Under the pieces are notes generated by a model. It saw only the letters and a program-made list of their open reading frames with translations. It was not told the DNA's origin and did not search any database. A stretch of 64,000 nucleotides of DNA, taken from assembly GCA_963732385.1 (NCBI GenBank), contig CAVSZB010000005.1, positions 39,742 to 103,741 of the forward strand, in the 5' to 3' direction. Both the position numbers and the translations under genes were made by a program. Source of the stretch: an uncultured bacterium (lineage in GTDB: Bacteria; Krumholzibacteriota; Krumholzibacteriia; LZORAL124-64-63). Positions 7,157-21,075 of this stretch are shown piece after piece (position 1 is the first letter of the stretch; each line of letters opens with the position of its first letter).

Positions 7157-7930
7157 TCAGGTCCGACTCTGCCGGGCCACCACGACCGTGATGTTGTCGG
7201 GGCCGCCCTCCTTGCGCGCCCGCTCCACGAGGAGCTGGCAGGCGCGCTGGGGCAGGTGCATCGAGACGATGCGCAGGATTTCGGGGTCGTGAATCACTTT
7301 GATCAGGCCGTCCGAGCAGAGCACCAGCGTGGCCCCCTCGGCGAAGATGACCGGGTTGCCGATGTCCGGCTCCACGCCCTCCTCGTTGCCGAGCCAGCGC
7401 GTCAGGACGTTCGACAGGCTCTGCTTGTCGGGCGGCAGCGTCTGGCCCTGGCGCCGGTACTCGCCGCCGAGCGAGTGGTCTTCGGTCAGCGGGAAGAGCT
7501 GCCCGTCGTGCGCGAGATAGGCGCGGCAGTCGCCGATGTGGCCGATCACCAGCTCCTGCCCGCGGACCACGGCGGCCGTGCAGGTCGTGGCCATGTTGGC
7601 GCGCAGCGGACTGGCGGCCGCATCGGCGAGGATGGCCCGGTTGGCCTCGAGCAGCGTCTCGTAGAGGGCCGCCCGCAGGTCGGTCGGCACGCCGGCGGCG
7701 AAGAAACGCTCGCCGAAGGTCTGCACCGCGATCCGGCTCGCCACCTCGCCCGCCGCGTTGCCGCCCACGCCGTCGGCCACGACGAGCAGCAGCGCCCCGG
7801 GCGCGGTGTCGCAGGTGAAGATGCCGACCGCGTCTTCGTTCTTCTCGCGCCGGCAGCCGATGTCGCTGAGGCTGGCGTGCAGGAGTCGCAGGCCGGTGGC
7901 CGGTGACGTCGGCGGGCTGTCGTGGTTCAT
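7157..7930 (-). CDS. PP2C-family Ser/Thr phosphatase
   Basis: 257 aa from the ATG at 7930, with GGAGG upstream. It carries the PP2C hallmarks DIGCRREKNEDA, VVADGVGG, GDCRAY and LCSDGL. The start overlaps the upstream gene's stop as ATGA. Confidence 0.9.
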   Translation of the reverse strand: MNHDSPPTSPATGLRLLHASLSDIGCRREKNEDAVGIFTCDTAPGALLLVVADGVGGNAAGEVASRIAVQTFGERFFAAGVPTDLRAALYETLLEANRAILADAAASPLRANMATTCTAAVVRGQELVIGHIGDCRAYLAHDGQLFPLTEDHSLGGEYRRQGQTLPPDKQSLSNVLTRWLGNEEGVEPDIGNPVIFAEGATLVLCSDGLIKVIHDPEILRIVSMHLPQRACQLLVERARKEGGPDNITVVVARQSRT

Positions 7931-9300
7931 GAGCCTCCTCTGCGACCCGGGAGCGCGAGGCCCGCCGGACGCGTTGTCCTGCGATAGACGAGCCCGACCG
8001 CGCCGCCCAGGAGCACGCGATCGCCTTCGCCGATGGTGGCCGTCCGCACCGGCCGTTCGTTGACCTGCGTCCCGTTCGTCGAGCGCAGATCGGTGATGAT
8101 GACCGCGCCCCGCCGCACCCGCAGCACCGCGTGCTGGCGGGAGACCCGCGGCTCCGCCACGACGATCGTGTTGCCGGCCGCCGAGCCGATCGTGGCGCCC
8201 GAGCGCGGCAGGCGGTGCACGGTCTGGCGTCCGCCGGCCGTCACGACCAGTTCGCCGGCCGAGGCGAAGCGCAGCCGCGCCAGCACGACCGCCGCGACGA
8301 TCAGCACCAGGGCCGCCAGCAGCAGCGCCGGCCAGCGGCCGATGCCGCGCTCGGCGAGCGCCCGGCGGGCGCGCAGCGTGCCGTCGGCCGCGAGCTCGCC
8401 GTCGGCGCGCGTCACGCGCAGCGTCACGTCGGCCGGCAGCCCCACGCCCGGCGCGGCAAACCGCGCCGCCAGCGCGCCGTCGACGACGGCCACCAGCCGC
8501 CGCACCGCCATCCCGGCCTCGCCGGCGCCGGCGGTCAGCAGCCGGCCGCCGCTGCCGTCGGCCAGGCGCCGCAGCCGCGCCGCCTCGGCGCCCGCCGCGT
8601 CGGTATCGCCGAGCAGGACGACGTACACCGCCACCCGGGCCGAGTCGGCGGCCGCCAGGCAGCTCACCGACGAGTAGCGGCTGCCCTGCCCCTGCCGGCC
8701 GCTCGTCACCACGATGAGCGTCCGCCGCGCCGGCAGCTCCGGAAAGGCCAGCACGGCCAGCGCGTCCTTCACATTGTCCCACAACGGGACCGGCGTGTCG
8801 CCGGCGAGGTCGGCCGCGGCCGGCGGGCGGGCCGCTCCCGCGCCGCCGCCACCGCCCGGCGCCAGCCGCCGCAGCGCCCGCGGACGCGACCCCGTCGCAT
8901 AGAGTCCGCGCCAGGCGTCGGGCGCGGCCTGCCCCGCGAACGCCGCCAGCGCCTCGCCGCAGGCCGCCACGGCGTCGGCGGGCAGGCCGCGCAGATCGGC
9001 CAGCACCGCCACCGCCGACGGCGCGCCGCCCGGAGCGGGGGCGAACGGCAGCAGCGTCGGCGCGCCCACCGGCCCGCCGCCCGCCGCGAGCGTCAGCGCC
9101 GCGGCCGGCACCGCCAGCGGCAGACCGCCGGCGTCGACCAGCGTGAACGGGAGCTGGTACTGCCCGCCCGTCAGCGGCACGCCCGGCTCGAGCCGCAGCT
9201 CGGCCGCAACCCCCTGGGCCCGCGCGCCGCCCCCCGGCGCCAGCAGCGCAATCACGACGGCCGCCGCCCGCAGCGACCGGAATCCGCGGCGTGAAAGCAT
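7927..9300 (-). CDS. Membrane protein with N-terminal signal peptide and periplasmic domain, one TM, and C-terminal cytoplasmic FHA domain
   Basis: Starts MLSRRGFRSLRAAAVVIALLA (signal). A TM segment WPALLLAALVLIVAAVVLARL follows. The C-terminal FHA signature is ATIGSAAGNTIVV..SRQHA..TDLRSTNGTQVN. Confidence 0.75.
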   Translation of the reverse strand: MLSRRGFRSLRAAAVVIALLAPGGGARAQGVAAELRLEPGVPLTGGQYQLPFTLVDAGGLPLAVPAAALTLAAGGGPVGAPTLLPFAPAPGGAPSAVAVLADLRGLPADAVAACGEALAAFAGQAAPDAWRGLYATGSRPRALRRLAPGGGGGAGAARPPAAADLAGDTPVPLWDNVKDALAVLAFPELPARRTLIVVTSGRQGQGSRYSSVSCLAAADSARVAVYVVLLGDTDAAGAEAARLRRLADGSGGRLLTAGAGEAGMAVRRLVAVVDGALAARFAAPGVGLPADVTLRVTRADGELAADGTLRARRALAERGIGRWPALLLAALVLIVAAVVLARLRFASAGELVVTAGGRQTVHRLPRSGATIGSAAGNTIVVAEPRVSRQHAVLRVRRGAVIITDLRSTNGTQVNERPVRTATIGEGDRVLLGGAVGLVYRRTTRPAGLALPGRRGGS

Positions 9301-9399
9301 GTCCGCGCCGCCCCTCCCCACGGTACGACCAGGTGCGCCGGCGGGAGAATCCCGACCCGCGTGGCGGAGTCTAAGGCGCGGCGGCGGGCATCGCAATCG

Positions 9400-11193
9400 C
9401 TAGTCGACCGGCAGATCGAACTGCTGTGGGCAGCGCATCACCACGGCCGCGGCCAGGAAGCGCGACACGTACTCCCGCGTCTCCTGCGGCAGACACGGCG
9501 CGTCCTTGCGCACGAGGTCCCAGAACTTCCAGCGCGACCACCAGTCGATGTTCATGCGCCGCAGGCAGGCGCGCAGCCCGTTGTCGCCCTTGTTGTAGGC
9601 GGCCACCGCGCACATGCAGTCGTTGGAACCGTAGGCGATCATCAGGTCCTGCAGGTACTGGCAGGCCGCGGTCGTGGCCCGCACCGGGTCCTTGCGCTCG
9701 TCGACGGTGTCGTCGACCCGCAGGCCGTAGTCGCGGGCGGTGCCGCGCATGAGCTGCCACATCCCCATCGCCCCGGCCGGACTCTCGATCTCGGCCTGGT
9801 AGCCGCTCTCGATGAACGGAAGGTAGCAGAAGGCCTGCGGGATCCCCTGCGCCTCGAGCTGCGAGCGCAGCATGTCCAGGTGCGGCCGCGCCCGGCGGAG
9901 CGTGCGCAGGGTGTAGTCGCGCCGGTCGACCGTCCACATCCGCACGGCGCCTTCCACCTCCGCCACCATCGTGCCCGGCAGCGCGTCCAGCCGCGTGTCG
10001 ACCCCGAACTGGGCGAAGATCCGCGACAGCTCCTCTTCCAGGCTGAAGGCCGGCGGCGGCGGGACGGCCGGCGCCGTCTCCTCGGCCGCGGTCACCTCGG
10101 GTTCCGGCGGCGGAGGCGGCGGCGGCCGCCGCCCCTCGCGCAGCTCCTGCAGCAGCGCGAACGGATCGCGGTCCCGCAGCCGATCCCGGTCGATCCGCTT
10201 GGCGGTCTCGCGCAGCGCCTCCCGCACTTCGTCGTCGCTCTGCCGGTCGGGCGGCAGCCGGTCGGCCGCGATCAGCGAGCGGATGGCGATCTCGAACTGC
10301 GCCTTGGCCACGGTGTCGTTGGGCGGCGAAGCGTCGTAGGCCACGAGCGCGTCGTCGAGGCTGCGCCGCGCCTGCTCGACGTACATGTCTTTCGTCCAGA
10401 GCCGCTCCACCCGCTCGCCCGCCGGCCGCAGCGACGGCAGCAGCAGCACCCCCACCAGCACCAGCGCCGCGATCCCCAGCACCATCGCCCCATGCACCGA
10501 AGGCACGGGACACAACTGCACGGTGAAGACGACATCGGCGAACCCGACCCGGTCCCCCACCCGCAGTACCCGCTCCTTGACCGCCTCCCCGTTGACGGAA
10601 GTGCCGTTCCTGCTCCCGGCATCGGTGAGCAGCAGCCGGTCCCCCCGCCGCTCGATCCGCGCATGCACCCCCGAGATCTGCGCCAGCGGCAGCAGCAGAT
10701 CGGCCCCCTCGTCCCGCCCGATCACGCTCAGCTTGCGCGCCAGCAGCAGCGAGGCTCCGCCCGCCCGCGTATCGCGCGACACCAGCCGCAGACAGAGCAG
10801 CCCCGCCGGATCAGGCAGCCGCCGCCCCGCCCCCCGCGCCCGCACCGGCCGCTCGAGCGAGAACACGAACTCCCGCTCCGGCCCCAGCCGCAGCACCGCG
10901 CCGTCCCGCAACGGCGCCCGCCCCACCCGCTCCCCGTCGACAAAGGTCCCGTTGGCGCTCCCCTGGTCCTCGACGAACCAGACCGCCCCCTCCTGCACCA
11001 GCTGCGCATGCCGCCGACTGAGCGCCGCATCGTCGATACAGAGATCGCACCCCGCATCCCGCCCGATCAGCAGCCGCCCCCCGGCCGGCACGCACACGTC
11101 GGCCCCGCCCGCCCGCGGACGCACCCGCGCCCCGCAGGCCGGCCGCGCCCCCGCGCGCCCCCCCGCTCTAAGTCCGCCGGAAGTGTCAGCCAT
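9400..11193 (-). CDS. FHA-FHA-TM-SLT fusion: two N-terminal FHA domains, a TM helix, poly-Pro linker and C-terminal lytic transglycosylase (SLT) domain
   Basis: FHA motifs (GRDAGCDL..SRRHA..GSANGTFV, and IGRDEGADL..SGVHA..GSRNGTSVN), a TM AMVLGIAALVLVGVLLLPSL, a PPPPPPP linker, and the SLT catalytic region ESGYQAEIESPAGAMGMWQLM...YN. Confidence 0.8.
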   Translation of the reverse strand: MADTSGGLRAGGRAGARPACGARVRPRAGGADVCVPAGGRLLIGRDAGCDLCIDDAALSRRHAQLVQEGAVWFVEDQGSANGTFVDGERVGRAPLRDGAVLRLGPEREFVFSLERPVRARGAGRRLPDPAGLLCLRLVSRDTRAGGASLLLARKLSVIGRDEGADLLLPLAQISGVHARIERRGDRLLLTDAGSRNGTSVNGEAVKERVLRVGDRVGFADVVFTVQLCPVPSVHGAMVLGIAALVLVGVLLLPSLRPAGERVERLWTKDMYVEQARRSLDDALVAYDASPPNDTVAKAQFEIAIRSLIAADRLPPDRQSDDEVREALRETAKRIDRDRLRDRDPFALLQELREGRRPPPPPPPEPEVTAAEETAPAVPPPPAFSLEEELSRIFAQFGVDTRLDALPGTMVAEVEGAVRMWTVDRRDYTLRTLRRARPHLDMLRSQLEAQGIPQAFCYLPFIESGYQAEIESPAGAMGMWQLMRGTARDYGLRVDDTVDERKDPVRATTAACQYLQDLMIAYGSNDCMCAVAAYNKGDNGLRACLRRMNIDWWSRWKFWDLVRKDAPCLPQETREYVSRFLAAAVVMRCPQQFDLPVD

Positions 11194-11195
11194 GA

Positions 11196-11627
11196 TCACG
11201 TCGCCGCAGGCAGCGGGAAACACCGGAAGAGGAACCGCGTGCCCCCCATCTGCACCCGGTCACCATCGCGCAGCGCCTGCTCGGTAATCCGCACGTCGTT
11301 CACGAGCGTCCCGTTGGTGGAGTTGAGGTCCCGCAGCACGTACTGCCCCCCCCCGAACACCACCTCCGCATGCCGACTGGAAAGGAACCGATCATCCCCG
11401 ATGATGACATCGCACCCCGCCACCGACCCGAAGCGAAGGGTCCCGGCCGTCAACCGAAAGTCCCGCCCCCGCTGCGCCCCACTGACAGCCACGAGCCACG
11501 CCACCAACTCCTGCCGCCCCACCGGACTCATGAGGACAGCCGTCTTGTCGAGATCGTCCACCGTCATCGCCCCCGGCGCCGCCACCGGCACCACAGGAGG
11601 AGGAGCAGCAGGAGGCGCAGGCGGCAC
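11196..11627 (-). CDS. FHA-domain protein (probably the C-terminal part of a zinc-ribbon/FHA protein)
   Basis: FHA signature FRLTAGTLRFGSVAGCDVIIGDDRFLSSRHAEVVFGGGQYVLRDLNSTNGTLVN. The N-terminus is a Pro/Ala-rich low-complexity stretch. Confidence 0.7.
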   Translation of the reverse strand: MPPAPPAAPPPVVPVAAPGAMTVDDLDKTAVLMSPVGRQELVAWLVAVSGAQRGRDFRLTAGTLRFGSVAGCDVIIGDDRFLSSRHAEVVFGGGQYVLRDLNSTNGTLVNDVRITEQALRDGDRVQMGGTRFLFRCFPLPAAT

Positions 11628-11690
11628 ATAGGCCGGAGGAGCCAGCAGGCGCAGCAGGAGCCGCCGGCGGAATGACCGGCCGCGCCCCGA

Positions 11691-12158
11691 TCACCGTGAT
11701 GTCATCCCCGCCCCCACCGGGTCCCCCCACCCCCGGCCCCGTCGGCACCCGACGGATCGGTTCGGAAACCGGCCGCGCCACCGGCGCATGCTCGATCCGC
11801 CGCACCGGCTCCGGCGCCCGCTGAAAAGGTTGAGGAGCAGGCGGCACCGCGCCAAGGGAGGAGGCGCAGCAGGAGCAGCCGGACAGCAGGAGCAGCCGGC
11901 CAAGTCGGCGGCCCCGCCGCCGGCGGCAGGAGACGTATAGGCAGGAGCCCCAGCCCCCGCATGAGGCGCCGGCGGCATCGGCTCCGCCGCCCGAGCCCCC
12001 CGCCCCGCCGCCGAACTCCCCCGCTCGTCATCTACAGGGATGAAATCCCCGCTAAGATCGCTCCCCCCCTCACAATAAGGACAGCTATCCCAAGACGGAT
12101 CCAGGAGATGCCCGTTCGCACAATGCCGCACCTTGTTCTTCCGCTTCCCGAACAGCAT
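11691..12158 (-). CDS. Zinc-ribbon domain protein with Pro/Ala-rich tail (probable N-terminal part of the FHA protein, split by frame changes)
   Basis: MLFGKRKNKVRHCANGHLLDPSWDSCPYCEG (CxxGH..CPYC zinc ribbon) followed by a low-complexity linker. Three overlapping frames are open across 11390-11850. Confidence 0.5.
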   Translation of the reverse strand: MLFGKRKNKVRHCANGHLLDPSWDSCPYCEGGSDLSGDFIPVDDERGSSAAGRGARAAEPMPPAPHAGAGAPAYTSPAAGGGAADLAGCSCCPAAPAAPPPLARCRLLLNLFSGRRSRCGGSSMRRWRGRFPNRSVGCRRGRGWGDPVGAGMTSR

Positions 12159-12598
12159 GCTCCCCCATCTCCCCCGCAGGACGGCCAAGCCAGCTAACTT
12201 TGTGGCTTGAGAAGGGTTCGGGGCAGTCTACCAACGGGGGTGCGGGGATTGTCAACTTACTGGGCGGAGGACTTGTTCCCAACCCAGCTTCGATCGTAAG
12301 GCCGGCGGGCAGCGTGCTCTCGCCATTTATTGCCCAGGACGCTGCTAGGATTGCCGAGATGGCTTCGAGTCACCCGTCCGCAAGCACTTCAACACGCTGA
12401 TGGCCGTGCTCATGTCGAGCCGGAACATCTGCGGAACGCAAAGCCCCAGCCAACCTACGAGGGCAGTTGATTGCAGCCAGCCCTATAGATTTACACTGCC
12501 ATGCGCTTAGACTATGCTGGTTCAGCCTTGTGGGCCAGGGGGGCCAGCGGGCTCCGTTGCAGTCACCTGATTCATGTTAACCACCGTGGGAGTGGGCA

Positions 12599-13315
12599 GT
12601 GTTTCATTGGATGATGTCGCCGCTTTCCCGACATGTCGACGGGGGCTTCGGCGCCATCGGAGACGCCTACAAGCGCGCCGCCGACAACCTGGATGAACCC
12701 GCTTCCTTAGCGAACCCGAATGGCCACTTGCCGGTGAACTTTTTGCGCCGGCATGCGATCGAGCTCTTCCTCAAATCGATGATTATGGTGCTGCATCGTT
12801 GCTTGAGCGATCCGCAAGACGAGCGCGACGGAGATGCAATGCCGGAAATACAGGTCGATGGTCGGTCGACACCCCTGTCACGCATCCATCGTATCCAGGC
12901 GCTTTTCGACTACTTTATGCAGTTGGCTACGTCTAACCGAGATCGATTTCTGGATGCCGACAAGACGGACTGGGCTAAAGTTCCGAGCGAGCTCGCCGGC
13001 TGGATAGCCGCGATTGAACGAGCAGACGCATCAAGTACTTTCTTCCGCTATCCTGAGCCGCCCAACCGTGCCGCCGTGACAGACAAGTCCGCATGGCGCG
13101 AGGTGCATCCGGAAGACATCGATGCACGGCTGAGCAGGCCAGGTCGTAGCCCTACTGGGCTCTTCATTCTCATGGGCGAGGACGAATGCGTGCGGCTTGC
13201 TTGCGCGCACGAAGGACTTCCGCTCCAGGAACTGTCATTGTCGCTGAAGCAGGCCACCGAGATGTTGTCAGGCGCTCATATCGGACTTAGGGCCGAACTT
13301 GCAGGAGGGTGGTAG
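12599..13315 (+). CDS. Hypothetical protein (238 aa), first gene of low-GC island
   Basis: GTG start with GGGAG about 6 nt upstream. GC is ~55% versus ~70% in the flanks. No recognisable motif. It lies 240 bp upstream of the DUF262 gene. Confidence 0.55.
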   Translation: MFHWMMSPLSRHVDGGFGAIGDAYKRAADNLDEPASLANPNGHLPVNFLRRHAIELFLKSMIMVLHRCLSDPQDERDGDAMPEIQVDGRSTPLSRIHRIQALFDYFMQLATSNRDRFLDADKTDWAKVPSELAGWIAAIERADASSTFFRYPEPPNRAAVTDKSAWREVHPEDIDARLSRPGRSPTGLFILMGEDECVRLACAHEGLPLQELSLSLKQATEMLSGAHIGLRAELAGGW

Positions 13316-13556
13316 TGGCCGAGAATAGCAGCATCAACGAACCGAAGGCACCGCCAGGCGATTGACCTGCGCCAGGCCAGCGCCAATCCGGCTTCGCAAG
13401 CCTTTCTTGCGAGCCATTCGCTACGTAGGTCAGAACAAGCAGAGTACCACAACCGCCCTTCGCGAATGTAAGTGCTGACATCGCAAATTACGGCGGCAGC
13501 CACCAAGTTGGATGGAATCCCGCAATCCAACAGGCACCATTCAAGGAGCATGCTGA

Positions 13557-14654
13557 GTGGAGATCGCAAAGAAACTGACTCCCACCACAAAAACTATCGA
13601 CGAACTAACCGAATTGTTCGACAACGGGCGCCTCGACCTAACGCCGGACTTTCAGAGAAACTCCGTCTGGCCTGGCCCGGCTAAAGCATATCTTGTCGAC
13701 ACCATCCTCAACGACATGCCAATCCCCCTCCTCTTCCTCACTCGAGAGAAGGACACCAATTCCAATCGCCTTCGATACCGTGTGATTGACGGGCAACAAA
13801 GAATTCGTGCCGCCATGGCTTTTCTTCACAATAGGTTCCCGATACCAAATCAATATAACCTTCAGCGCCCCAACGGCACCAAGTTCAAGCGCGTCCGGTT
13901 CCGCAATCTCTCTGAAGCGCTCAAGGAGCGCTTCATTGGGTACAGCTTCGTTGTATCTGAGCTAAGCGGATTCACGGATGAGGAGTTGCGGGACATATTT
14001 GTTCGAATCAACAAGTATGTAGTGCGCCTCAATCCCCAGGAGTTGCGGGACGCAAAGGCACCAGGCCCCTTTAGGCACTTCATCGACCAGTGTTCGCAGC
14101 GTGACATCTGGAACAAGGTCGGCATTTTCACTGGCAAGAATCGCGACCGGAAGCGCGACAAGGAGTTCATCGCTGAGTTGGCGATTCTTCTTCTCGATGG
14201 GCCGCAAGACAAGAAGGGCTCACTCGATCTCTATTACGCAGCAGTGCCCGATCAATTTTCTGGCGACGACCTCCAAGATGACCTTATCGGAACGGCCGAG
14301 ACGATTCACCAGTTGCTAGGAGCAAGCCCCCCTTCAACTCTAATTCGCCTACCTGTGTTTTATGGGCTGGTCGGCGCAATCTACAATATTCGATCAGACG
14401 AGGACGATGCGAAGAGGCTAGATGCGTCACTAACGGAAGCATATGATGCACTGGAAGAATTGTCCGACTTGGCAGATGACGTCGCTAAGGATGGTGCGGT
14501 TCCACCGGCAGACCTCACAGAGGAAGCGAAAGCCCGCCGCACTGACGCAGGGATATTTCGTCGTTCCATCAGCCAGCAGACCGACAATGTTCGGCCTCGC
14601 ACTGCGTGCATCGAGGTCCTTGAGCGCGTGATTCGATCTGCATTCGTTGAGTAG
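13557..14654 (+). CDS. DUF262 (ParB/Srx-like nuclease/NTPase fold) domain protein, 365 aa
   Basis: GTG start with AAGGAG 8 nt upstream. DUF262 motifs DFQRNSVW, AYLVDTILNDMPIPLLF and YRVIDGQQRIRA are present. No DUF1524/HNH C-terminal domain was recognised. GC is ~50%. Confidence 0.75.
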   Translation: MEIAKKLTPTTKTIDELTELFDNGRLDLTPDFQRNSVWPGPAKAYLVDTILNDMPIPLLFLTREKDTNSNRLRYRVIDGQQRIRAAMAFLHNRFPIPNQYNLQRPNGTKFKRVRFRNLSEALKERFIGYSFVVSELSGFTDEELRDIFVRINKYVVRLNPQELRDAKAPGPFRHFIDQCSQRDIWNKVGIFTGKNRDRKRDKEFIAELAILLLDGPQDKKGSLDLYYAAVPDQFSGDDLQDDLIGTAETIHQLLGASPPSTLIRLPVFYGLVGAIYNIRSDEDDAKRLDASLTEAYDALEELSDLADDVAKDGAVPPADLTEEAKARRTDAGIFRRSISQQTDNVRPRTACIEVLERVIRSAFVE

Positions 14655-14659
14655 ATGTC

Positions 14660-15655
14660 GTGCAAGACTTCATCAATCGTTACGAAGAAACCAGAGACCG
14701 CTTGGAAAGGGCAGCCCCTCGTCTTGAGGAGCAGTTAAAGACTGCTCTAAGAGATCACCGCATTCTCTTTCTTGCGGTTTCTGTACGCGTGAAGACTCTC
14801 GAGTCGGCGCTGCGCAAAATCAGCAAGAAGAAGTACAGCGATCCCTGGCAACAGATGATGGACTTGATCGCTGGGAGAATCTTTACCTATTTTCGACCGG
14901 ACGCCACCCAAGTGGAATCAGTTATCAGAGACTATTTTGATGTTCACGAGGAACACTCCAAGAACAAGTCAGATGATCTTGAATTCAACAAGTTCGGCTA
15001 CACATCCAGACACTTGGTATGTTCTCTGCGCGAGCGGTTTCCCGACCTTCGATTGAAGTCTCTAATTCCGGAAGGGATGATGTTCGAGCTTCAGATCCGA
15101 TCCGTCCTTGAACATGGATGGGCTGAGATAGAGCACGAACTGGTCTACAAGTCCGGTACGGAACCTCCAGACGCTATCCGAAGAAGATTTGCTGCCTCTG
15201 CGGCCGCACTGGAAATAGTCGAGCGCGAGTTCGACAGCCTTCGCGACTTTGAATTTCAAATGGCGGTGGATAGGTCGTTAGTCATTTCTGGCAATCTTGG
15301 TGCTCCCCTAGATAGGGCTTGGTTTATCGCCGTGCTGATGCGGGAATATCCTAGTCGCAGCACTTGGAGTCCCGATCCGCAGAAGAATGTCTTCTTCCGC
15401 AGTTATGAGCTCGTGCTCATCGAATCGCTTCGAGCGGTCGGTGTATCTACTGTTCGGGACTTTCTCAACAGGCTTCGCAAGCCAAAGCCTAGAAGAATGG
15501 TTCGCGAGTACGCTAAGAAGCGAGGGATACTCGAGGCCGACGTTTCTCATCTTCCAATCGCGATCTTCGCGACGTTTTATGACTCTGCGATCTCCATACC
15601 TGGAGAAATCAAACAAGTTGCTGACTCCACCATGCGCGAGCTACTGGCTTTATAG
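14660..15655 (+). CDS. RelA/SpoT synthetase-fold nucleotidyltransferase (small-alarmone-synthetase / toxSAS-like) with ~150-aa C-terminal extension
   Basis: Motifs VRVKTLESALRKISKK, DLIAGRIFTYF, FGYTSRHLV and ELQIRSVLEHGWAEIEHELVYK match the RelA/SpoT (PF04607) synthetase core. GTG start lies 5 nt after the DUF262 stop. GC is ~50%. Confidence 0.8.
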   Translation: MQDFINRYEETRDRLERAAPRLEEQLKTALRDHRILFLAVSVRVKTLESALRKISKKKYSDPWQQMMDLIAGRIFTYFRPDATQVESVIRDYFDVHEEHSKNKSDDLEFNKFGYTSRHLVCSLRERFPDLRLKSLIPEGMMFELQIRSVLEHGWAEIEHELVYKSGTEPPDAIRRRFAASAAALEIVEREFDSLRDFEFQMAVDRSLVISGNLGAPLDRAWFIAVLMREYPSRSTWSPDPQKNVFFRSYELVLIESLRAVGVSTVRDFLNRLRKPKPRRMVREYAKKRGILEADVSHLPIAIFATFYDSAISIPGEIKQVADSTMRELLAL

Positions 15656-15781
15656 CGGAGAAAGCCCCCACACGTGGTGCGAGGAGCTGCCTCACTCTAC
15701 GATCGGCTCCTGAGGTGGAACCGTGTCCTCGCGGCATAAGATCTCTCTGGAGGCCTGCTTGAAACGAACCAGACGATCGGG

Positions 15782-16258
15782 CAGTCGCTGGGGCTGACGG
15801 CAAGGCAGATGCGGATCGGGCGGGTGACGGTGGCCATGCGGTACGAGGCGAAGGGTGGGGAGTATTCGCGGAAGTTCAGCCACTATGAGATCTCGCAGCA
15901 GCTCAAGTTCATCGAGGAGGATGTGGCGCGGTACGATGAGTTTCGGGAGGTGCTCCTGGGAGTGCCGGGGTTGCAGGTGAATCAAGAGTTCGAGGCGAGC
16001 GGGGCGGAGTCGGCGAAGAACGACATGATGATCGAGGCACTGCGGTCGGCCAGACGGAAGGCGGAGGCGCTGGCGGCGGTCGTGGGAGCCAATGTCGGGC
16101 GGGCGATTTCGATCAGCGAGTTCAAGCCCAATCCGACGGATCGCGACATCGACACCGTGGCCTTTCTGCGCGGAGTGCCGTTCCGCGGCCCCGAGCCGGA
16201 CGGGATCGAGATCCGGGGGCGGATCTACGCCGTGTTCGAACTCGAGTAGGCAGCGGGC
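15782..16258. repeat. Direct repeat copy 1 (~477 bp, ~97% identical to 18362..18838; offset exactly 2580 bp)
   Basis: Base-by-base comparison of 15782-16258 with 18362-18838. Mismatches cluster in the first ~30 bp. Copy 1 encodes only the C-terminal 146 aa of the SIMPL protein. Confidence 0.85.
15809..16249 (+). pseudogene. Truncated duplicate of SIMPL/DUF541 gene (3' fragment, no signal peptide)
   Basis: The 146-aa translation is near-identical to residues ~102-247 of the 18086..18829 product. Confidence 0.7.
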
Positions 16259-16327: not shown

Positions 16328-18028
16328 ATGACCGCCGAGGAGCTCGCGAGGCTGATCGAGGCCGGCGAAACGCTTGCGATCGAGTTCAAGGGCGAGGAGC
16401 GTGAGGGCCTCTCGGATGCCGAACTGGTGGAGACGGTTGTCTGCCTCGCCAACAGGCCGGGTGGTGCCGATGCAGCATGGTTGCTCGTCGGCGTCGAGGA
16501 CGACGGCCGCGTGACGGGCGCGCGCCGGCGACATGCCGACCGCACCGATCCCAATAGGCTGCAGGCACTTGTGGCGAACCGGACGAGGCCGGCGCTGTCG
16601 GTGCGAGTTGACGTGATCGATATCGAGGGCAAGCAAGTCGTTGTCATCGACGTGCCTTTCGCCCGCTCGCCGGTCGGGACGACGGATGGCAAGTACGTGC
16701 GCCGGGCGCTGGGCGGCGACGGTCGACCGGCATGCGTGCCCATGCACTTTCACGAGATGCAATCGCACCAGGCCGATCGCGGCCTGCTCGATCATTCCGC
16801 GCTCGCGCTGCCGGACGCTCGCTGGCAGGATCTCGACCCGCTCGAATTCGAGCGTTTTCGCCGCTTCGTGCGCGAGAGTCAGGGCCGAGGCGATGCGAGC
16901 CTCGTGGAGTTGGCGGATATCGAGCTTGCCAAGGCGCTGGGCGCCGTGCAGGCCAACCATGACGTGTCTGCCGTGCACGTGCTTGGCCTGCTGCTCTTCG
17001 GCCGCGAAGAGGCGCTGCGCCGGCTGCTGCCGACTCATGAGGTCGCCTTCCAGGTTCTGTCGGGCCAGAAGGTGGAGGTCAACGACTTCTTCCGCTGGCC
17101 GCTGCTGCGTGTCGTGGATGAGCTGCTGGCGCGATTCCGGGCTCGCAATCGGGAGGAAGAACTGCTGGTCGGCATGCTGCGGATCGCCGTGCCCGATTAC
17201 GCCCCCGCTGCCTTTCGGGAGGGGGCTGCGAACGCCCTGATCCACCGCGACTACACTCGGCTCGGCGCCGTGCATGTGCAGTGGCGCGAGGACAGCATCG
17301 AGATCGCCAATCCCGGAGGCTTCCCGGAGGGGGTCCGCCTCGACAATCTGCTGGTCACCCAGCCGCGGCCCCGCAATCCCCTCCTGGCCGATGCGTTCAA
17401 GCGCGCCGGCATCGTCGAGCGCACCGCTCGTGGCATCGACACCATCTTCCACGAGCAGCTTCGCAACGGCCGTCCGGCGCCGAACTACGGGCGCAGCAAC
17501 GAGAGCGGGGTCGTGCTTGTCCTGCCGGGTGGCAAGGCCAATCTGGCCTTCGCGCGTCTCGTCGCCGAAGAGAGCCAGGCCGCCCGCCCCCTGTCCTTGG
17601 ATGACCTGTTGCTCCTCAACCACCTCTGGCTGGAGCGCCGCCTGAGTACGACCGAGTCCGCAGTGCTGATACAGAAACCCGAGGCGGAGGCGCGGACCCG
17701 CCTTCAGCGCCTGGTCGAAGCGGGACTCGTCGAAGCGCGCGGCGAGCGCAAGGGCCGGACCTGGCACCTCTCGGCTCCCGCCTACCGGCGCCTTGGGGAG
17801 CCTGGCGCCTACGTCCGCCAGCGCGGATTCGAACCGCTCCAGCAGGAGCAGATGGTGCAGCAATTCGTGGAAAAGCACGGTTCCATCAGCCGCGCCCAGG
17901 TGGCCGAGCTTTGCCGGCTCACCCCTCCGCAGGCCTATCGATTGCTCCAACGGCTTGCAAAGAAAGAACTTCTGTCTCGGCTGGGCTCTCGGGGGCGGGC
18001 CGTCCGCTACGGGCTGAAGGCACGATGA
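16328..18028 (+). CDS. AlbA_2 (Schlafen-like divergent AAA) + HATPase_c_4 + wHTH protein (often annotated as a transcriptional regulator or RecG-like)
   Basis: N-terminal ETLAIEFK...LANRPGGADAAWLLVGVEDDGRVTG (AlbA_2), central ANALIHRDY (HATPase_c_4), and a C-terminal winged-helix region. Confidence 0.7.
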   Translation: MTAEELARLIEAGETLAIEFKGEEREGLSDAELVETVVCLANRPGGADAAWLLVGVEDDGRVTGARRRHADRTDPNRLQALVANRTRPALSVRVDVIDIEGKQVVVIDVPFARSPVGTTDGKYVRRALGGDGRPACVPMHFHEMQSHQADRGLLDHSALALPDARWQDLDPLEFERFRRFVRESQGRGDASLVELADIELAKALGAVQANHDVSAVHVLGLLLFGREEALRRLLPTHEVAFQVLSGQKVEVNDFFRWPLLRVVDELLARFRARNREEELLVGMLRIAVPDYAPAAFREGAANALIHRDYTRLGAVHVQWREDSIEIANPGGFPEGVRLDNLLVTQPRPRNPLLADAFKRAGIVERTARGIDTIFHEQLRNGRPAPNYGRSNESGVVLVLPGGKANLAFARLVAEESQAARPLSLDDLLLLNHLWLERRLSTTESAVLIQKPEAEARTRLQRLVEAGLVEARGERKGRTWHLSAPAYRRLGEPGAYVRQRGFEPLQQEQMVQQFVEKHGSISRAQVAELCRLTPPQAYRLLQRLAKKELLSRLGSRGRAVRYGLKAR

Positions 18029-18145
18029 AAACACACATCGTGGCACAGAAACGCACGCGTGCATTGAAAACGCACGAAGTCGACAATGCGGCGCAATGGG
18101 CGAGCGCGCATTTGGACGCACCTCCTCGCCCAAAGGAGAATCGCC

Positions 18146-18829
18146 ATGCGATCCCTGTCATTCCTGATTCTGCTGGCGTGCATCGTGACAGCCCCGACTC
18201 TGGCTTCGAGCGCCGGGACCATCACCGTCATGGGCGACGCGTCGACGGTGGTCGGCGCGGACCGCGTCATCTGGAAGCTGTCGGTGACGACGAAGGACAC
18301 GAAGCTGGAGCAGGCGACGGCGCAGGCTGATGGGCTGCTGTCCCAGGCGGTGACTATCGGGGAGTCGCTTGGGCTGGCGAAGGAGCAGATGCGGATCGGG
18401 CGGGTGACGATGGCCATGCGGTACGAGGCGAAGGGTGGGGAGTATTCGCGGAAGTTCAGCCACTATGAGATCTCGCAGCAGCTCAAGTTCATCGAGGAGG
18501 ATGTGGCGCGGTACGATGAGTTTCGGGAGGTGCTCCTGGGAGTGCCGGGGTTGCAGGTGAATCAAGAGTTCGAGGCGAGCGGGGCGGAGTCGGCGAAGAA
18601 CGACATGATGATCGAGGCACTGCGGTCGGCCAGACGGAAGGCGGAGGCGCTGGCGGCGGTCGTGGGAGCCAAGGTCGGGCGGGCGATTTCGATCAGCGAG
18701 TTCAAGCCCAATCCGACGGATCGCGACATCGACACCGTGGCCTTTCTGCGCGGAGTGCCGTTCCGCGGCCCCGAGCCGGACGGGATCGAGATCCGGGGAC
18801 GGATCTACGCCGTGTTCGAACTCGAGTAG
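18146..18829 (+). CDS. SIMPL/DUF541 (BP26/Omp28-like) periplasmic protein, full length with signal peptide
   Basis: Signal peptide MRSLSFLILLACIVTAPTLASSAG (ATG at 18146; the ORF frame is open from 18086). The 3' ~450 bp duplicate 15782-16258. Confidence 0.7.
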   Translation: MRSLSFLILLACIVTAPTLASSAGTITVMGDASTVVGADRVIWKLSVTTKDTKLEQATAQADGLLSQAVTIGESLGLAKEQMRIGRVTMAMRYEAKGGEYSRKFSHYEISQQLKFIEEDVARYDEFREVLLGVPGLQVNQEFEASGAESAKNDMMIEALRSARRKAEALAAVVGAKVGRAISISEFKPNPTDRDIDTVAFLRGVPFRGPEPDGIEIRGRIYAVFELE

Positions 18830-18838
18830 GCAGCGGGA
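18362..18838. repeat. Direct repeat copy 2 (partner of 15782..16258)
   Basis: See copy 1. Confidence 0.85.
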
Positions 18839-20283: not shown

Positions 20284-21075
20284 TCACTCCGGGATCATTC
20301 GGGGCAGCACGCCTCCGGGGCGGCCGAAGTGGGGAACGGTGTCGCCTCCATCCACCGGGTCGGGGCTCACGAAATTTCGTTTCGAAGCTGAGAAGTACAG
20401 GCATCCGGATTCGGCCGGCGGGCGACTCCGCACGAAGGCCTCGGCCTCCTGCAGCGCAGCGATCCAGGTCGCCTTGAGCTGGACGAGGTCGATCGGGACC
20501 GCCAGATCGAGGTGCGCCAGGTCCTCCGGCCGGACCCTGCCCCGTCGTCGGAGCATCTCCAGCAACGAGAGCGGCGCGTAGCCGGGGTCCTTGCCCACGG
20601 CGGCCCACACCAGGGCTCCGAGCGGCAGGACGTTTTCGTGCAGATAGACGGTGTCGAGCAGGTCCCGCGGTTCGTCGCGCCCGGCGAGGGCCAGGACCTT
20701 GTTGGTCGCCAGATCGATCGGGTGGAGCTGGTAACCGAACTCGTCACTGCGCATGACCGGCATGAAACGCCAGGCCGAGTCCTGGGCCCACTCGATTTTC
20801 GTCGCGGTCTCGCCCTGGCAGACGATGGCTCGGATATGGCCCGGCTGGCTGATCTCCGTTTCCACATTGTAGCCGTTCGCCACGAGGGTGCCGTGATCAG
20901 CCGCGAAGGCCGAGGCCACGCGGACGGCGCTGTCGTGGAAGTAGTCGAGGTCGTGGCTGAATCGGTGGGTGTTGGGGGCCACCAGAATGGCCGCCGCACC
21001 GGCGAGATAGCTGTGCTCACTGCGGTTCGTCGCGAGCAGGCGTCCCAGCCGGGCCTGGAAATCAGTCAGCGGCAC
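20284..21075 (-). CDS. AbiEii/DUF1814-like nucleotidyltransferase (type IV toxin-antitoxin toxin-like)
   Basis: N-terminal LAGAAAILV....HRFSHDLDYF resembles the DUF1814 GGTAL...R.S.D.DF motif. It is paired with a small upstream gene. Convergent with rsgA. Confidence 0.5.
   Translation of the reverse strand: MPLTDFQARLGRLLATNRSEHSYLAGAAAILVAPNTHRFSHDLDYFHDSAVRVASAFAADHGTLVANGYNVETEISQPGHIRAIVCQGETATKIEWAQDSAWRFMPVMRSDEFGYQLHPIDLATNKVLALAGRDEPRDLLDTVYLHENVLPLGALVWAAVGKDPGYAPLSLLEMLRRRGRVRPEDLAHLDLAVPIDLVQLKATWIAALQEAEAFVRSRPPAESGCLYFSASKRNFVSPDPVDGGDTVPHFGRPGGVLPRMIPE

Follow-up and report, generated by a model that had tools for sequence, protein, structure and literature searches.

We analysed a 64,000-nucleotide stretch of DNA from an uncultured bacterium of the Krumholzibacteriota (contig CAVSZB010000005.1, positions 39,742 to 103,741; hereafter the window), in which a gene for a DUF262 protein directly precedes a gene for a protein of the RelA/SpoT synthetase fold. 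A preliminary description made from the letters alone had placed these two open reading frames (ORFs) at 13557-15655 and had regarded them as an undescribed module. Both ORFs were found at those coordinates, with exactly 5 nt separating the DUF262 stop codon from the RelA/SpoT GTG. The two genes and their parts, in window coordinates, are as follows.

13543-13548, plus strand: Shine-Dalgarno-like AAGGAG, 8 nt 5' of the GTG of the DUF262 gene, read from the sequence
13557-14654, plus strand: DUF262 (ParB/Srx-like, GmrSD_N) gene, 365 amino acids (aa), from Pfam, PADLOC and an AlphaFold2 (AF2) model
13788-13802, plus strand: codons of DGQQR (D78-R82), the nucleotide-binding/hydrolysis motif, from the sequence
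14655-14659, plus strand: 5-nt spacer from the DUF262 stop codon to the RelA/SpoT GTG, from the sequence
14660-15655, plus strand: RelA/SpoT gene, 331 aa, GTG start, from PF04607
14660-15247, plus strand: RelQ/RelP-like synthetase catalytic domain (~residues 1-196), predicted effector
15248-15655, plus strand: all-helical, family-specific C-terminal domain (~residues 197-331) plus stop codon, from family conservation

The DUF262 gene starts with GTG and ends with TAG at 14652-14654. As the preliminary assignment had it, the product contains DUF262 (PF03235 GmrSD_N, E 1.1e-20, residues 17-166) as its sole Pfam family, carries the DGQQR motif and has no DUF1524/HNH domain detectable by Pfam. The protein is laid out as an N-terminal nucleoside triphosphate (NTP)-binding domain (~residues 6-166) followed by a helical C-terminal half, and its AF2 model has a predicted local distance difference test score (pLDDT) of 91.4. 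The best PADLOC models were NsnA (5.5e-37, residues 9-228) and then PD-T4-2_A (3e-21, residues 16-207). Both come from validated systems, where a DUF262 protein lacking a nuclease cooperates with an effector encoded separately (PMC10952713, PMC12065111, PMC9519451). By structure, the best match in the PDB was BrxU (7p9k, E 1.2e-4), followed more weakly by the Noc/ParB CTPases (E of at least 0.02). The all-helical C-terminal half had no sequence match in the PDB, and Pfam together with structure and PDB-sequence comparison recognised no nuclease or other toxic domain in the protein. Across 53 aligned homologues 42 columns are invariant, DGQQR among them, and the family shares the further conserved motifs FQRNxVWP, EGPQDKK and QTDNxxPR. 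This degree of invariance points to an active, NTP-using protein and not to a passive antidote. By analogy with its relatives, we predict that the DUF262 protein is a sensor or regulator.

The RelA/SpoT protein matches PF04607 alone (E 3.8e-18, residues 43-167), with no hydrolase domain by Pfam, and its N-terminal MQDF lines up with the MQSF of homologues. An intact synthetase core had been claimed for it, and the motifs are indeed complete: RxKxxxSxxxK (R43-K53), DxxxGR (D68-R73), GYxSxH (113-118) and ExQIRS...WAExEHxxxYK (143-164). In 79 sequences of the family R43, K45, K53, R73, E143 and Q145 are invariant, while D68, G113, Y114, S116, H118 and R147 are conserved in at least 90%. The predicted structure (pLDDT 95.9, predicted template modelling score 0.89) consists of two domains packed together. 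In fold comparison the catalytic domain was most similar to housekeeping RelQ/RelP; CapRel (11.9), long Rel/SpoT (11.7), Tas1 (8.8) and FaRel (6.3) fitted the model less well. The modelled domain thus resembles RelQ/RelP, which make (p)ppGpp, more closely than CapRel, which modifies tRNA, or Tas1 and FaRel, which make (p)ppApp. GTP/GDP would be favoured as the acceptor substrate by this fold similarity, which is a weak predictor. The preliminary description had itself named a housekeeping synthetase in a conserved context as one of the findings that would undo it. We rejected that identity: the protein scores 53 bits against a cut-off of 320 for the NCBIfam RelQ/YjbM equivalog (GTPPhKinYjbM), its gene lies in a low-GC islet, and it carries an extra C-terminal domain. 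A weak match to the single-gene PADLOC candidate PDC-S33 (3e-8) was also seen.

The extra domain (~residues 197-331) had no Pfam match, no PDB sequence match and no fold match. A search of its alignment against a collection of 5.8 billion proteins returned zero matches, family members included, and is uninformative. Its net charge lies anywhere between -15 and +9 in family members, the window protein having +5. A hidden Markov model (HMM) of the domain picks out nearly all DUF262-linked synthetases, and only two synthetases that have no DUF262 neighbour. The domain is a candidate regulatory or partner-docking domain.

An indexed search with the RelA/SpoT protein gave only 17 close relatives. 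Contigs were fetched for three of them (45-66% identity), and in each the synthetase gene is immediately preceded by one for a GmrSD_N protein of 356-365 aa, in neighbourhoods that are unrelated in other respects. Scanning 185,579 species-representative genomes with a profile gave 80 RelA/SpoT loci (loci are cited by number, L001 onwards). An HMM of the DUF262 subfamily matched 11 of these 80, each time directly upstream (L005, L006, L007, L009, L013, L016, L017, L035, L054, L059 and L061). The family C-terminal domain is clear in the synthetases of nine of the 11 and divergent in L059 (E 0.0027) and L035 (E 7.1). From the other side, a search with the DUF262 protein gave 456 homologues, and RelA_SpoT lay immediately downstream in all ten sampled by contig (38-78% identity; L005 being the tenth). 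The two counts, ten of ten and 11 of 80, bear on the co-occurrence check that the preliminary description had proposed. A scan of metagenomes with the DUF262 alignment returned mostly generic DUF262 proteins, VIDGQQR being too unspecific a pattern, and served as a specificity control only: among 80 such generic loci a RelA/SpoT partner was present solely in L139, the one member of the subfamily. Judged from these genomic counts, the pairing goes far beyond chance.

Fifteen of 16 pairs have the two genes -11 to +14 nt apart, and in the remaining one the gap is 38 nt. Upstream of the RelA/SpoT GTG in the window there is only a weak Shine-Dalgarno-like TGAG, and the 5-nt spacing suggests that the two genes are translationally coupled. 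The pairwise identity matrices of the two proteins correlate (r = 0.82, Mantel p = 2e-4, 16 pairs), showing that the two families co-diverge. Overall, the DUF262 partner is conserved next to the synthetase in 26 loci. Carriers belong to the Acidobacteriota, the Actinomycetota and the Alphaproteobacteria, with one Armatimonadota metagenome-assembled genome (MAG) and, among the homologues, a Binataceae MAG; two are cultured, Arthrobacter sp. ISL-95 (L035) and Microbacterium sp. NPDC057944 (L086). Among the best 150 matches of an exhaustive profile search we counted ~100 full-length clusters at 50% identity. The sequence comparisons indicate a real family of modest size, and a conserved, co-diverging bicistronic module in at least four phyla.

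Several copies depart from this arrangement. Two synthetase homologues, at 4977-6023 in L025 and ~4875-6044 in L084, have the same C-terminal domain and intact motifs and lack a DUF262 neighbour; the first sits after a membrane transporter-like gene and the second after a Ser/Thr kinase-WD40 protein. The existence of these intact orphans suggests that the enzyme is not lethal by itself. In L001 a paired synthetase (8001-9026, P0014) carries D68G and H159P at otherwise conserved catalytic positions beside an adjoining DDE transposase, and may be an inactivated copy. Apparent frameshifts affect the DUF262 gene of L017 and the synthetase gene of L054, where MAG sequencing errors are possible. Finally, L085 (6001-7854, P0247) encodes a 617-aa in-frame DUF262-RelA/SpoT fusion that is present on three contigs. 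Its DUF262 part stops ~50 residues short of the usual end and has thereby lost the invariant QTDNxxPR, its synthetase part begins ~15 residues late, and the remaining proteins of its 90% cluster are unfused (344-379 aa). The fusion is probably a recent in-frame deletion, and with both partners partial and its own cluster unfused we down-weighted it as Rosetta-stone evidence.

In the window, the module lies in a segment of distinct composition. The islet from 12.2 to 15.8 kb has 52-59% GC in the composition profile and the rest of the window ~71%. Three plus-strand ORFs make up its contents, namely a 238-aa orphan, the 365-aa DUF262 gene and the 331-aa RelA/SpoT gene, and its right edge adjoins a truncated copy of a SIMPL gene. 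Rfam found no RNA elements in the islet. Its extent and the additional ORF are as follows.

12200-15771, no strand: low-GC islet, from the composition profile and direct-repeat analysis
12599-13315, plus strand: 238-aa orphan ORF inside the islet

The composition of this segment indicates that the module was acquired horizontally. No family in Pfam, NCBIfam, PADLOC or PHROGs matches the orphan ORF, and tblastn (E <= 1e-3) found no counterpart of it in L001-L084, the 84 loci searched. Between it and the pair lies a terminator-like hairpin (13390-13402). A three-gene system that includes the ORF was rejected on these grounds. The ORF also has a promoter-like site of its own (12490-12518). A direct repeat of ~480 bp, ~99% identical over 454 nt, occurs at 15772-16257 and 18352-18837. 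Copy 1 is a 5'-truncated SIMPL/DUF541 gene (ORF 15809-16249) that abuts the right edge of the islet, and copy 2 is the 3' part of an intact SIMPL/DUF541 gene (18086-18829). Since copy 1 stands at the islet edge, the repeats suggest that insertion of the islet truncated one of two tandem SIMPL copies.

What the pair does must be argued from precedent. In every characterised system the DUF262 part detects DNA or nucleotides and governs an executor distinct from it: GmrSD, BrxU and SspE use an HNH nuclease, PD-T4-2 a HEPN protein and Menshen NsnB/NsnC (PMC10952713, PMC12065111, PMC9519451). A second precedent comes from PANGU type I, which consists of a YejK-like nucleoid protein, Pag1A, and a GRel toxic small alarmone synthetase (toxSAS), Pag1B (bioRxiv 10.64898/2026.04.06.716658). 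There, the DNA-bound YejK-like protein is freed by phage-induced genome damage and binds the C-terminal domain of GRel, turning an inactive tetramer into an active, pppGpp-producing complex and leading to abortive infection; neither gene is toxic alone (bioRxiv 10.64898/2026.04.06.716658). Taken together, the PANGU precedent and the sensor-executor pattern of DUF262 systems lead us to favour a licensing model. The preliminary description had offered either sensor and effector roles or a toxin-antitoxin (TA) module, in both cases reasoning by analogy, and PD-T4-2, Menshen and PANGU are closer precedents than those it drew on. All points of its interpretation that sequence analysis can check were borne out.

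The reading that we favour, and to which we give an even chance, is that the two genes make up a self-contained unit that moves horizontally and is most likely a conflict system of the anti-phage or abortive-infection type, in which the DUF262 protein licenses the alarmone synthetase through the C-terminal domain of the latter. By analogy, then, the pair is probably an undescribed anti-phage or stress "kill-switch". DNA sensing, the product made, the defence phenotype and activation in place of neutralisation are all inferred, and the mechanism would run as follows. The DUF262 NTPase domain and the helical domain behind it, which is related to the DNA-binding 'ParBDB' of NsnA and SspE, would detect foreign or damaged DNA in an NTP-dependent manner. 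Once triggered, the DUF262 protein would engage the C-terminal helical domain of the synthetase and switch the enzyme on. The enzyme would move pyrophosphate from ATP, most probably to GTP/GDP to give (p)ppGpp, and less probably to ATP to give (p)ppApp or to the 3' end of tRNA, and the product would stop growth of the infected cell. A bolder form of this reading, which we hold a little short of even, is a so far unnamed defence family that would be found widely among Acidobacteriota, Actinomycetota and Alphaproteobacteria of the soil. In it the ParB-like NTP switch would license the small alarmone synthetase directly by way of a dedicated helical docking domain, with no nuclease or ATPase between the two, and detection of foreign or damaged DNA would thereby lead to dormancy driven by (p)ppGpp or (p)ppApp.

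Several observations weigh against the licensing model. The gene order, regulator and then enzyme, and the tight coupling would suit an antitoxin-toxin pair equally well. Defence genes are a minority among the 73 ORFs that neighbour the 12 genome loci, and the pairs in L220-222 lie among housekeeping genes only (cox/GreA in L220-221). No DUF262 partner was present beside any of 50 RelA/SpoT relatives on IMG/VR viral contigs; a phage-borne origin of the module was rejected on the same count. The variable charge of the C-terminal domain means, moreover, that the mechanism of PANGU, in which this domain is an acidic DNA mimic, cannot simply be carried over.

The strongest alternative, which we nevertheless regard as unlikely, is a classical type II TA pair representing a new toxSAS family. 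Here the RelA/SpoT enzyme would be constitutively toxic, the DUF262 protein would be both antitoxin and DNA-binding autorepressor, and loss or titration of the antitoxin would free the toxin. DUF262-only proteins such as DndB are DNA-binding regulators, which fits this proposal, as do the tightly coupled bicistronic layout with the putative antitoxin first, the co-divergence of the partners and the abundant TA genes around L001. Moreover, the combination of toxSAS toxins with unrelated antitoxins is well established, as cited in a passage of bioRxiv 10.64898/2026.04.06.716658. If the DUF262 protein were only an antidote, however, its size (~335-365 aa) and an NTPase motif accompanied by ~40 more invariant columns would be unlike a passive antitoxin, and the partnerless orphans L025 and L084 speak, as a weak argument, against obligatory neutralisation. 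Its nearest DUF262 relatives, NsnA and PD-T4-2_A, are needed positively for defence and are not antidotes (PMC10952713), and the closest architectural precedent, PANGU, is not a TA system (bioRxiv 10.64898/2026.04.06.716658).

Quite improbable, in our estimate, is a role in stress signalling outside defence, in which the DUF262 protein senses the state of the chromosome or of nucleotides (DNA damage, modification) and tunes a small alarmone synthetase, with no killing and no anti-phage role. The resemblance of the catalytic domain to housekeeping RelQ/RelP is what one would expect in this case, and both the absence of phage-borne copies from the 50 viral loci and the setting of L220-222, with no defence or mobile genes within 7 kb, agree with it. 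Against a signalling role stand the low-GC islet that holds the module in the window, the score far under the RelQ equivalog threshold, and a patchy distribution across several phyla with mobile-element or defence genes at more than half of the annotated loci. The apparently decaying copies in L001, L017, L054 and L085 are likewise typical of accessory conflict genes.

We consider it more improbable still that the roles are reversed, with the RelA/SpoT protein sensing through its C-terminal domain and making a nucleotide signal, and with the DUF262 protein, which is ParB-like, executing the response once it binds this signal, for instance by clamping or cutting DNA: ParB-fold domains do bind CTP and other NTPs, the DUF262 model does resemble ParB/Noc CTPases and BrxU, many acidic and basic residues beyond DGQQR are invariant (including those of EGPQDKK and QTDNxxPR), and CapRel-type enzymes sense phage proteins through C-terminal domains (cited in a passage of bioRxiv 10.64898/2026.04.06.716658), but the DUF262 protein has no recognisable nuclease or toxic domain, another domain executes in every characterised DUF262 system (PMC10952713, PMC12065111), and the products of RelA/SpoT enzymes already arrest growth, which makes a further effector unnecessary.

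The genomic surroundings were counted in 10 distinct annotated loci including the window, with flanks of 7-8 kb per side (L004 being a 4.7-kb contig). Defence-type neighbours were present in six of the 10, as listed here.

Window: an SLFN_AlbA_2 protein and AbiEii
L003: an MmeI-type restriction-modification (RM) system plus a helicase
L004: Shedu
L086: NaeI RM
L087: an OLD/AAA_15 nuclease with an insertion sequence element
L219: two AbiTii, HNH and a recombinase

Integrases, a resolvase, a TrwC relaxase and a D5-type primase occur near the 12 genome loci, and so do ribonucleotide reductase, a tRNA synthetase and ThiC. The module behaves as a small mobile accessory cassette that is often, though not always, near defence or mobile-element genes; its association with defence islands is partial.

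In the window itself, the gene to the right of the islet (16328-18028, plus strand), which the two repeat copies flank on either side, encodes a 566-aa protein with SLFN_AlbA_2 (4e-14), HATPase_c_4 (1.6e-16) and a C-terminal winged helix-turn-helix, and matches PADLOC models of prokaryotic Argonaute (pAgo)-associated SIR2-PNTD (1e-12). It may be a separate Schlafen-type defence gene beside the module. Further along, the product of 20284-21075 on the minus strand resembles the AbiEii nucleotidyltransferase toxin (6.5e-5 in Pfam, with weak matches to several AbiEii models of PADLOC), and a small same-strand ORF directly upstream of it could be a putative antitoxin. To the left of the islet, 7157-12188 on the minus strand holds very GC-rich genes whose translations resemble, by eye, a PP2C phosphatase and FHA-domain proteins. 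A tRNA-Ser(GCT) that ARAGORN called at 8281-8351, within these coding sequences, may be spurious.

The DUF262 family extends beyond the synthetase-linked members. A sister clade (36-40% identity over the N-terminal ~220 residues) has a ~290-aa Ser/Thr protein kinase directly downstream, in the following pairs.

L141: 3932-5867
L143: 3938-6208
L144: 3941-5829
L145: 2192-4140
L140: 190-2432

In L141, L144 and L145 the pair lies between an upstream ORF of ~390-415 aa and a downstream ORF of 590-756 aa; in L141, the sole locus scanned for this, the upstream ORF is a class-V aminotransferase and the downstream one a ResIII/SNF2 helicase. This arrangement is apparently another undescribed pairing of DUF262 with an effector, and it fits the picture of one sensor with exchangeable effectors. 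With this clade included, DUF262 sensors would pair with a HEPN RNase, with an ABC ATPase plus nuclease, with a Ser/Thr kinase and with a pyrophosphokinase.

The preliminary description had not recognised the pairing as a named system, and that view holds: no system in PADLOC 2.0, Pfam or NCBIfam combines DUF262 with RelA/SpoT, and full-text searches found no paper that links DUF262 with RelA/SpoT (or PF03235 with PF04607), toxSAS with ParB, or an alarmone synthetase with DUF262 or GmrSD. A mention of the pair in a supplement is possible, because the Menshen survey lists the DUF262 systems GmrSD, PD-T4-2, Dazbog, SspE and Menshen as 'but not limited to' (PMC12065111).

Among the known systems, PD-T4-2 of E. 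coli ECOR65 (Vassallo et al. 2022) is alike in having two genes, of which the first is a stand-alone DUF262 without DUF1524, matched by the window protein as given above, and the second a presumed toxic effector. It differs in that its effector is HEPN (PF18735; PMC10952713) where the window has a RelA/SpoT synthetase with no HEPN or PD-T4-2_B match in Pfam or PADLOC, and in that NsnA, not PD-T4-2_A, is the top DUF262 model of the window protein. The likeness to Menshen (NsnABC; Millman 2022) lies in NsnA, with similarity that runs from the ParB-DUF262 domain into the following helical region, and in the proposed logic of a DUF262 DNA sensor with a swappable effector (PMC12065111). Menshen, however, requires the ABC ATPase NsnB as transducer and the inPIN nuclease NsnC as effector, and both are absent downstream in the window, where RelA_SpoT and then the truncated SIMPL follow, and in all related loci. 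The type IV restriction enzymes GmrSD, BrxU and SspE share the N-terminal DUF262 domain with DGQQR, and BrxU is the best structural match; they differ in carrying a C-terminal DUF1524 HNH nuclease in the same polypeptide.

On the synthetase side, RelQ/RelP housekeeping enzymes are single-domain proteins of ~200-230 aa, in contrast to the 331 aa and extra domain found here. CapRel(SJ46) and the toxSAS enzymes FaRel, FaRel2 and PhRel are alike in using the RelA/SpoT synthetase fold as a growth-arresting conflict effector. The toxSAS enzymes further share the synthetase-only RelA/SpoT protein with a conserved bicistronic partner, and CapRel a regulatory C-terminal domain of similar size. CapRel differs in combining, within one fused polypeptide, the sensing of phage capsid with the pyrophosphorylation of tRNA. 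No counterpart of its C-terminal pseudo-ZFD antitoxin/sensor domain is present here, the C-terminal domain of the window protein having no sequence match to CapRel. PANGU type I, compared by the description of Pag1B, is alike in its bicistronic layout, with the DNA-binding protein first and then a synthetase that has an N-terminal synthetase domain and a C-terminal partner-binding domain. Its partner is NdpA/YejK (IPR007358), whereas here it is a ParB-like DUF262 NTPase, and no NdpA-type neighbour was present among the Pfam-scanned neighbours of related synthetases. The variable charges found in the family give no clear support to an acidic DNA-mimic C-terminal domain in the style of Pag1B.

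If confirmed, the licensing model would add a new sensor-effector combination to bacterial immunity and would be the second case, after PANGU, of a DNA-binding partner that activates an alarmone synthetase and does not neutralise it. It would also provide a clean two-protein system in which to study how ParB-fold NTPases signal to a partner enzyme, as in PD-T4-2, Menshen and Dazbog, and the two cultured carriers, Arthrobacter and Microbacterium, make the idea directly testable. The module lacks defining features of every named family that it resembles, and its logic matches known kinds. We regard it as a well-supported, testable and apparently undescribed pairing, conceptually incremental after PD-T4-2 and PANGU.

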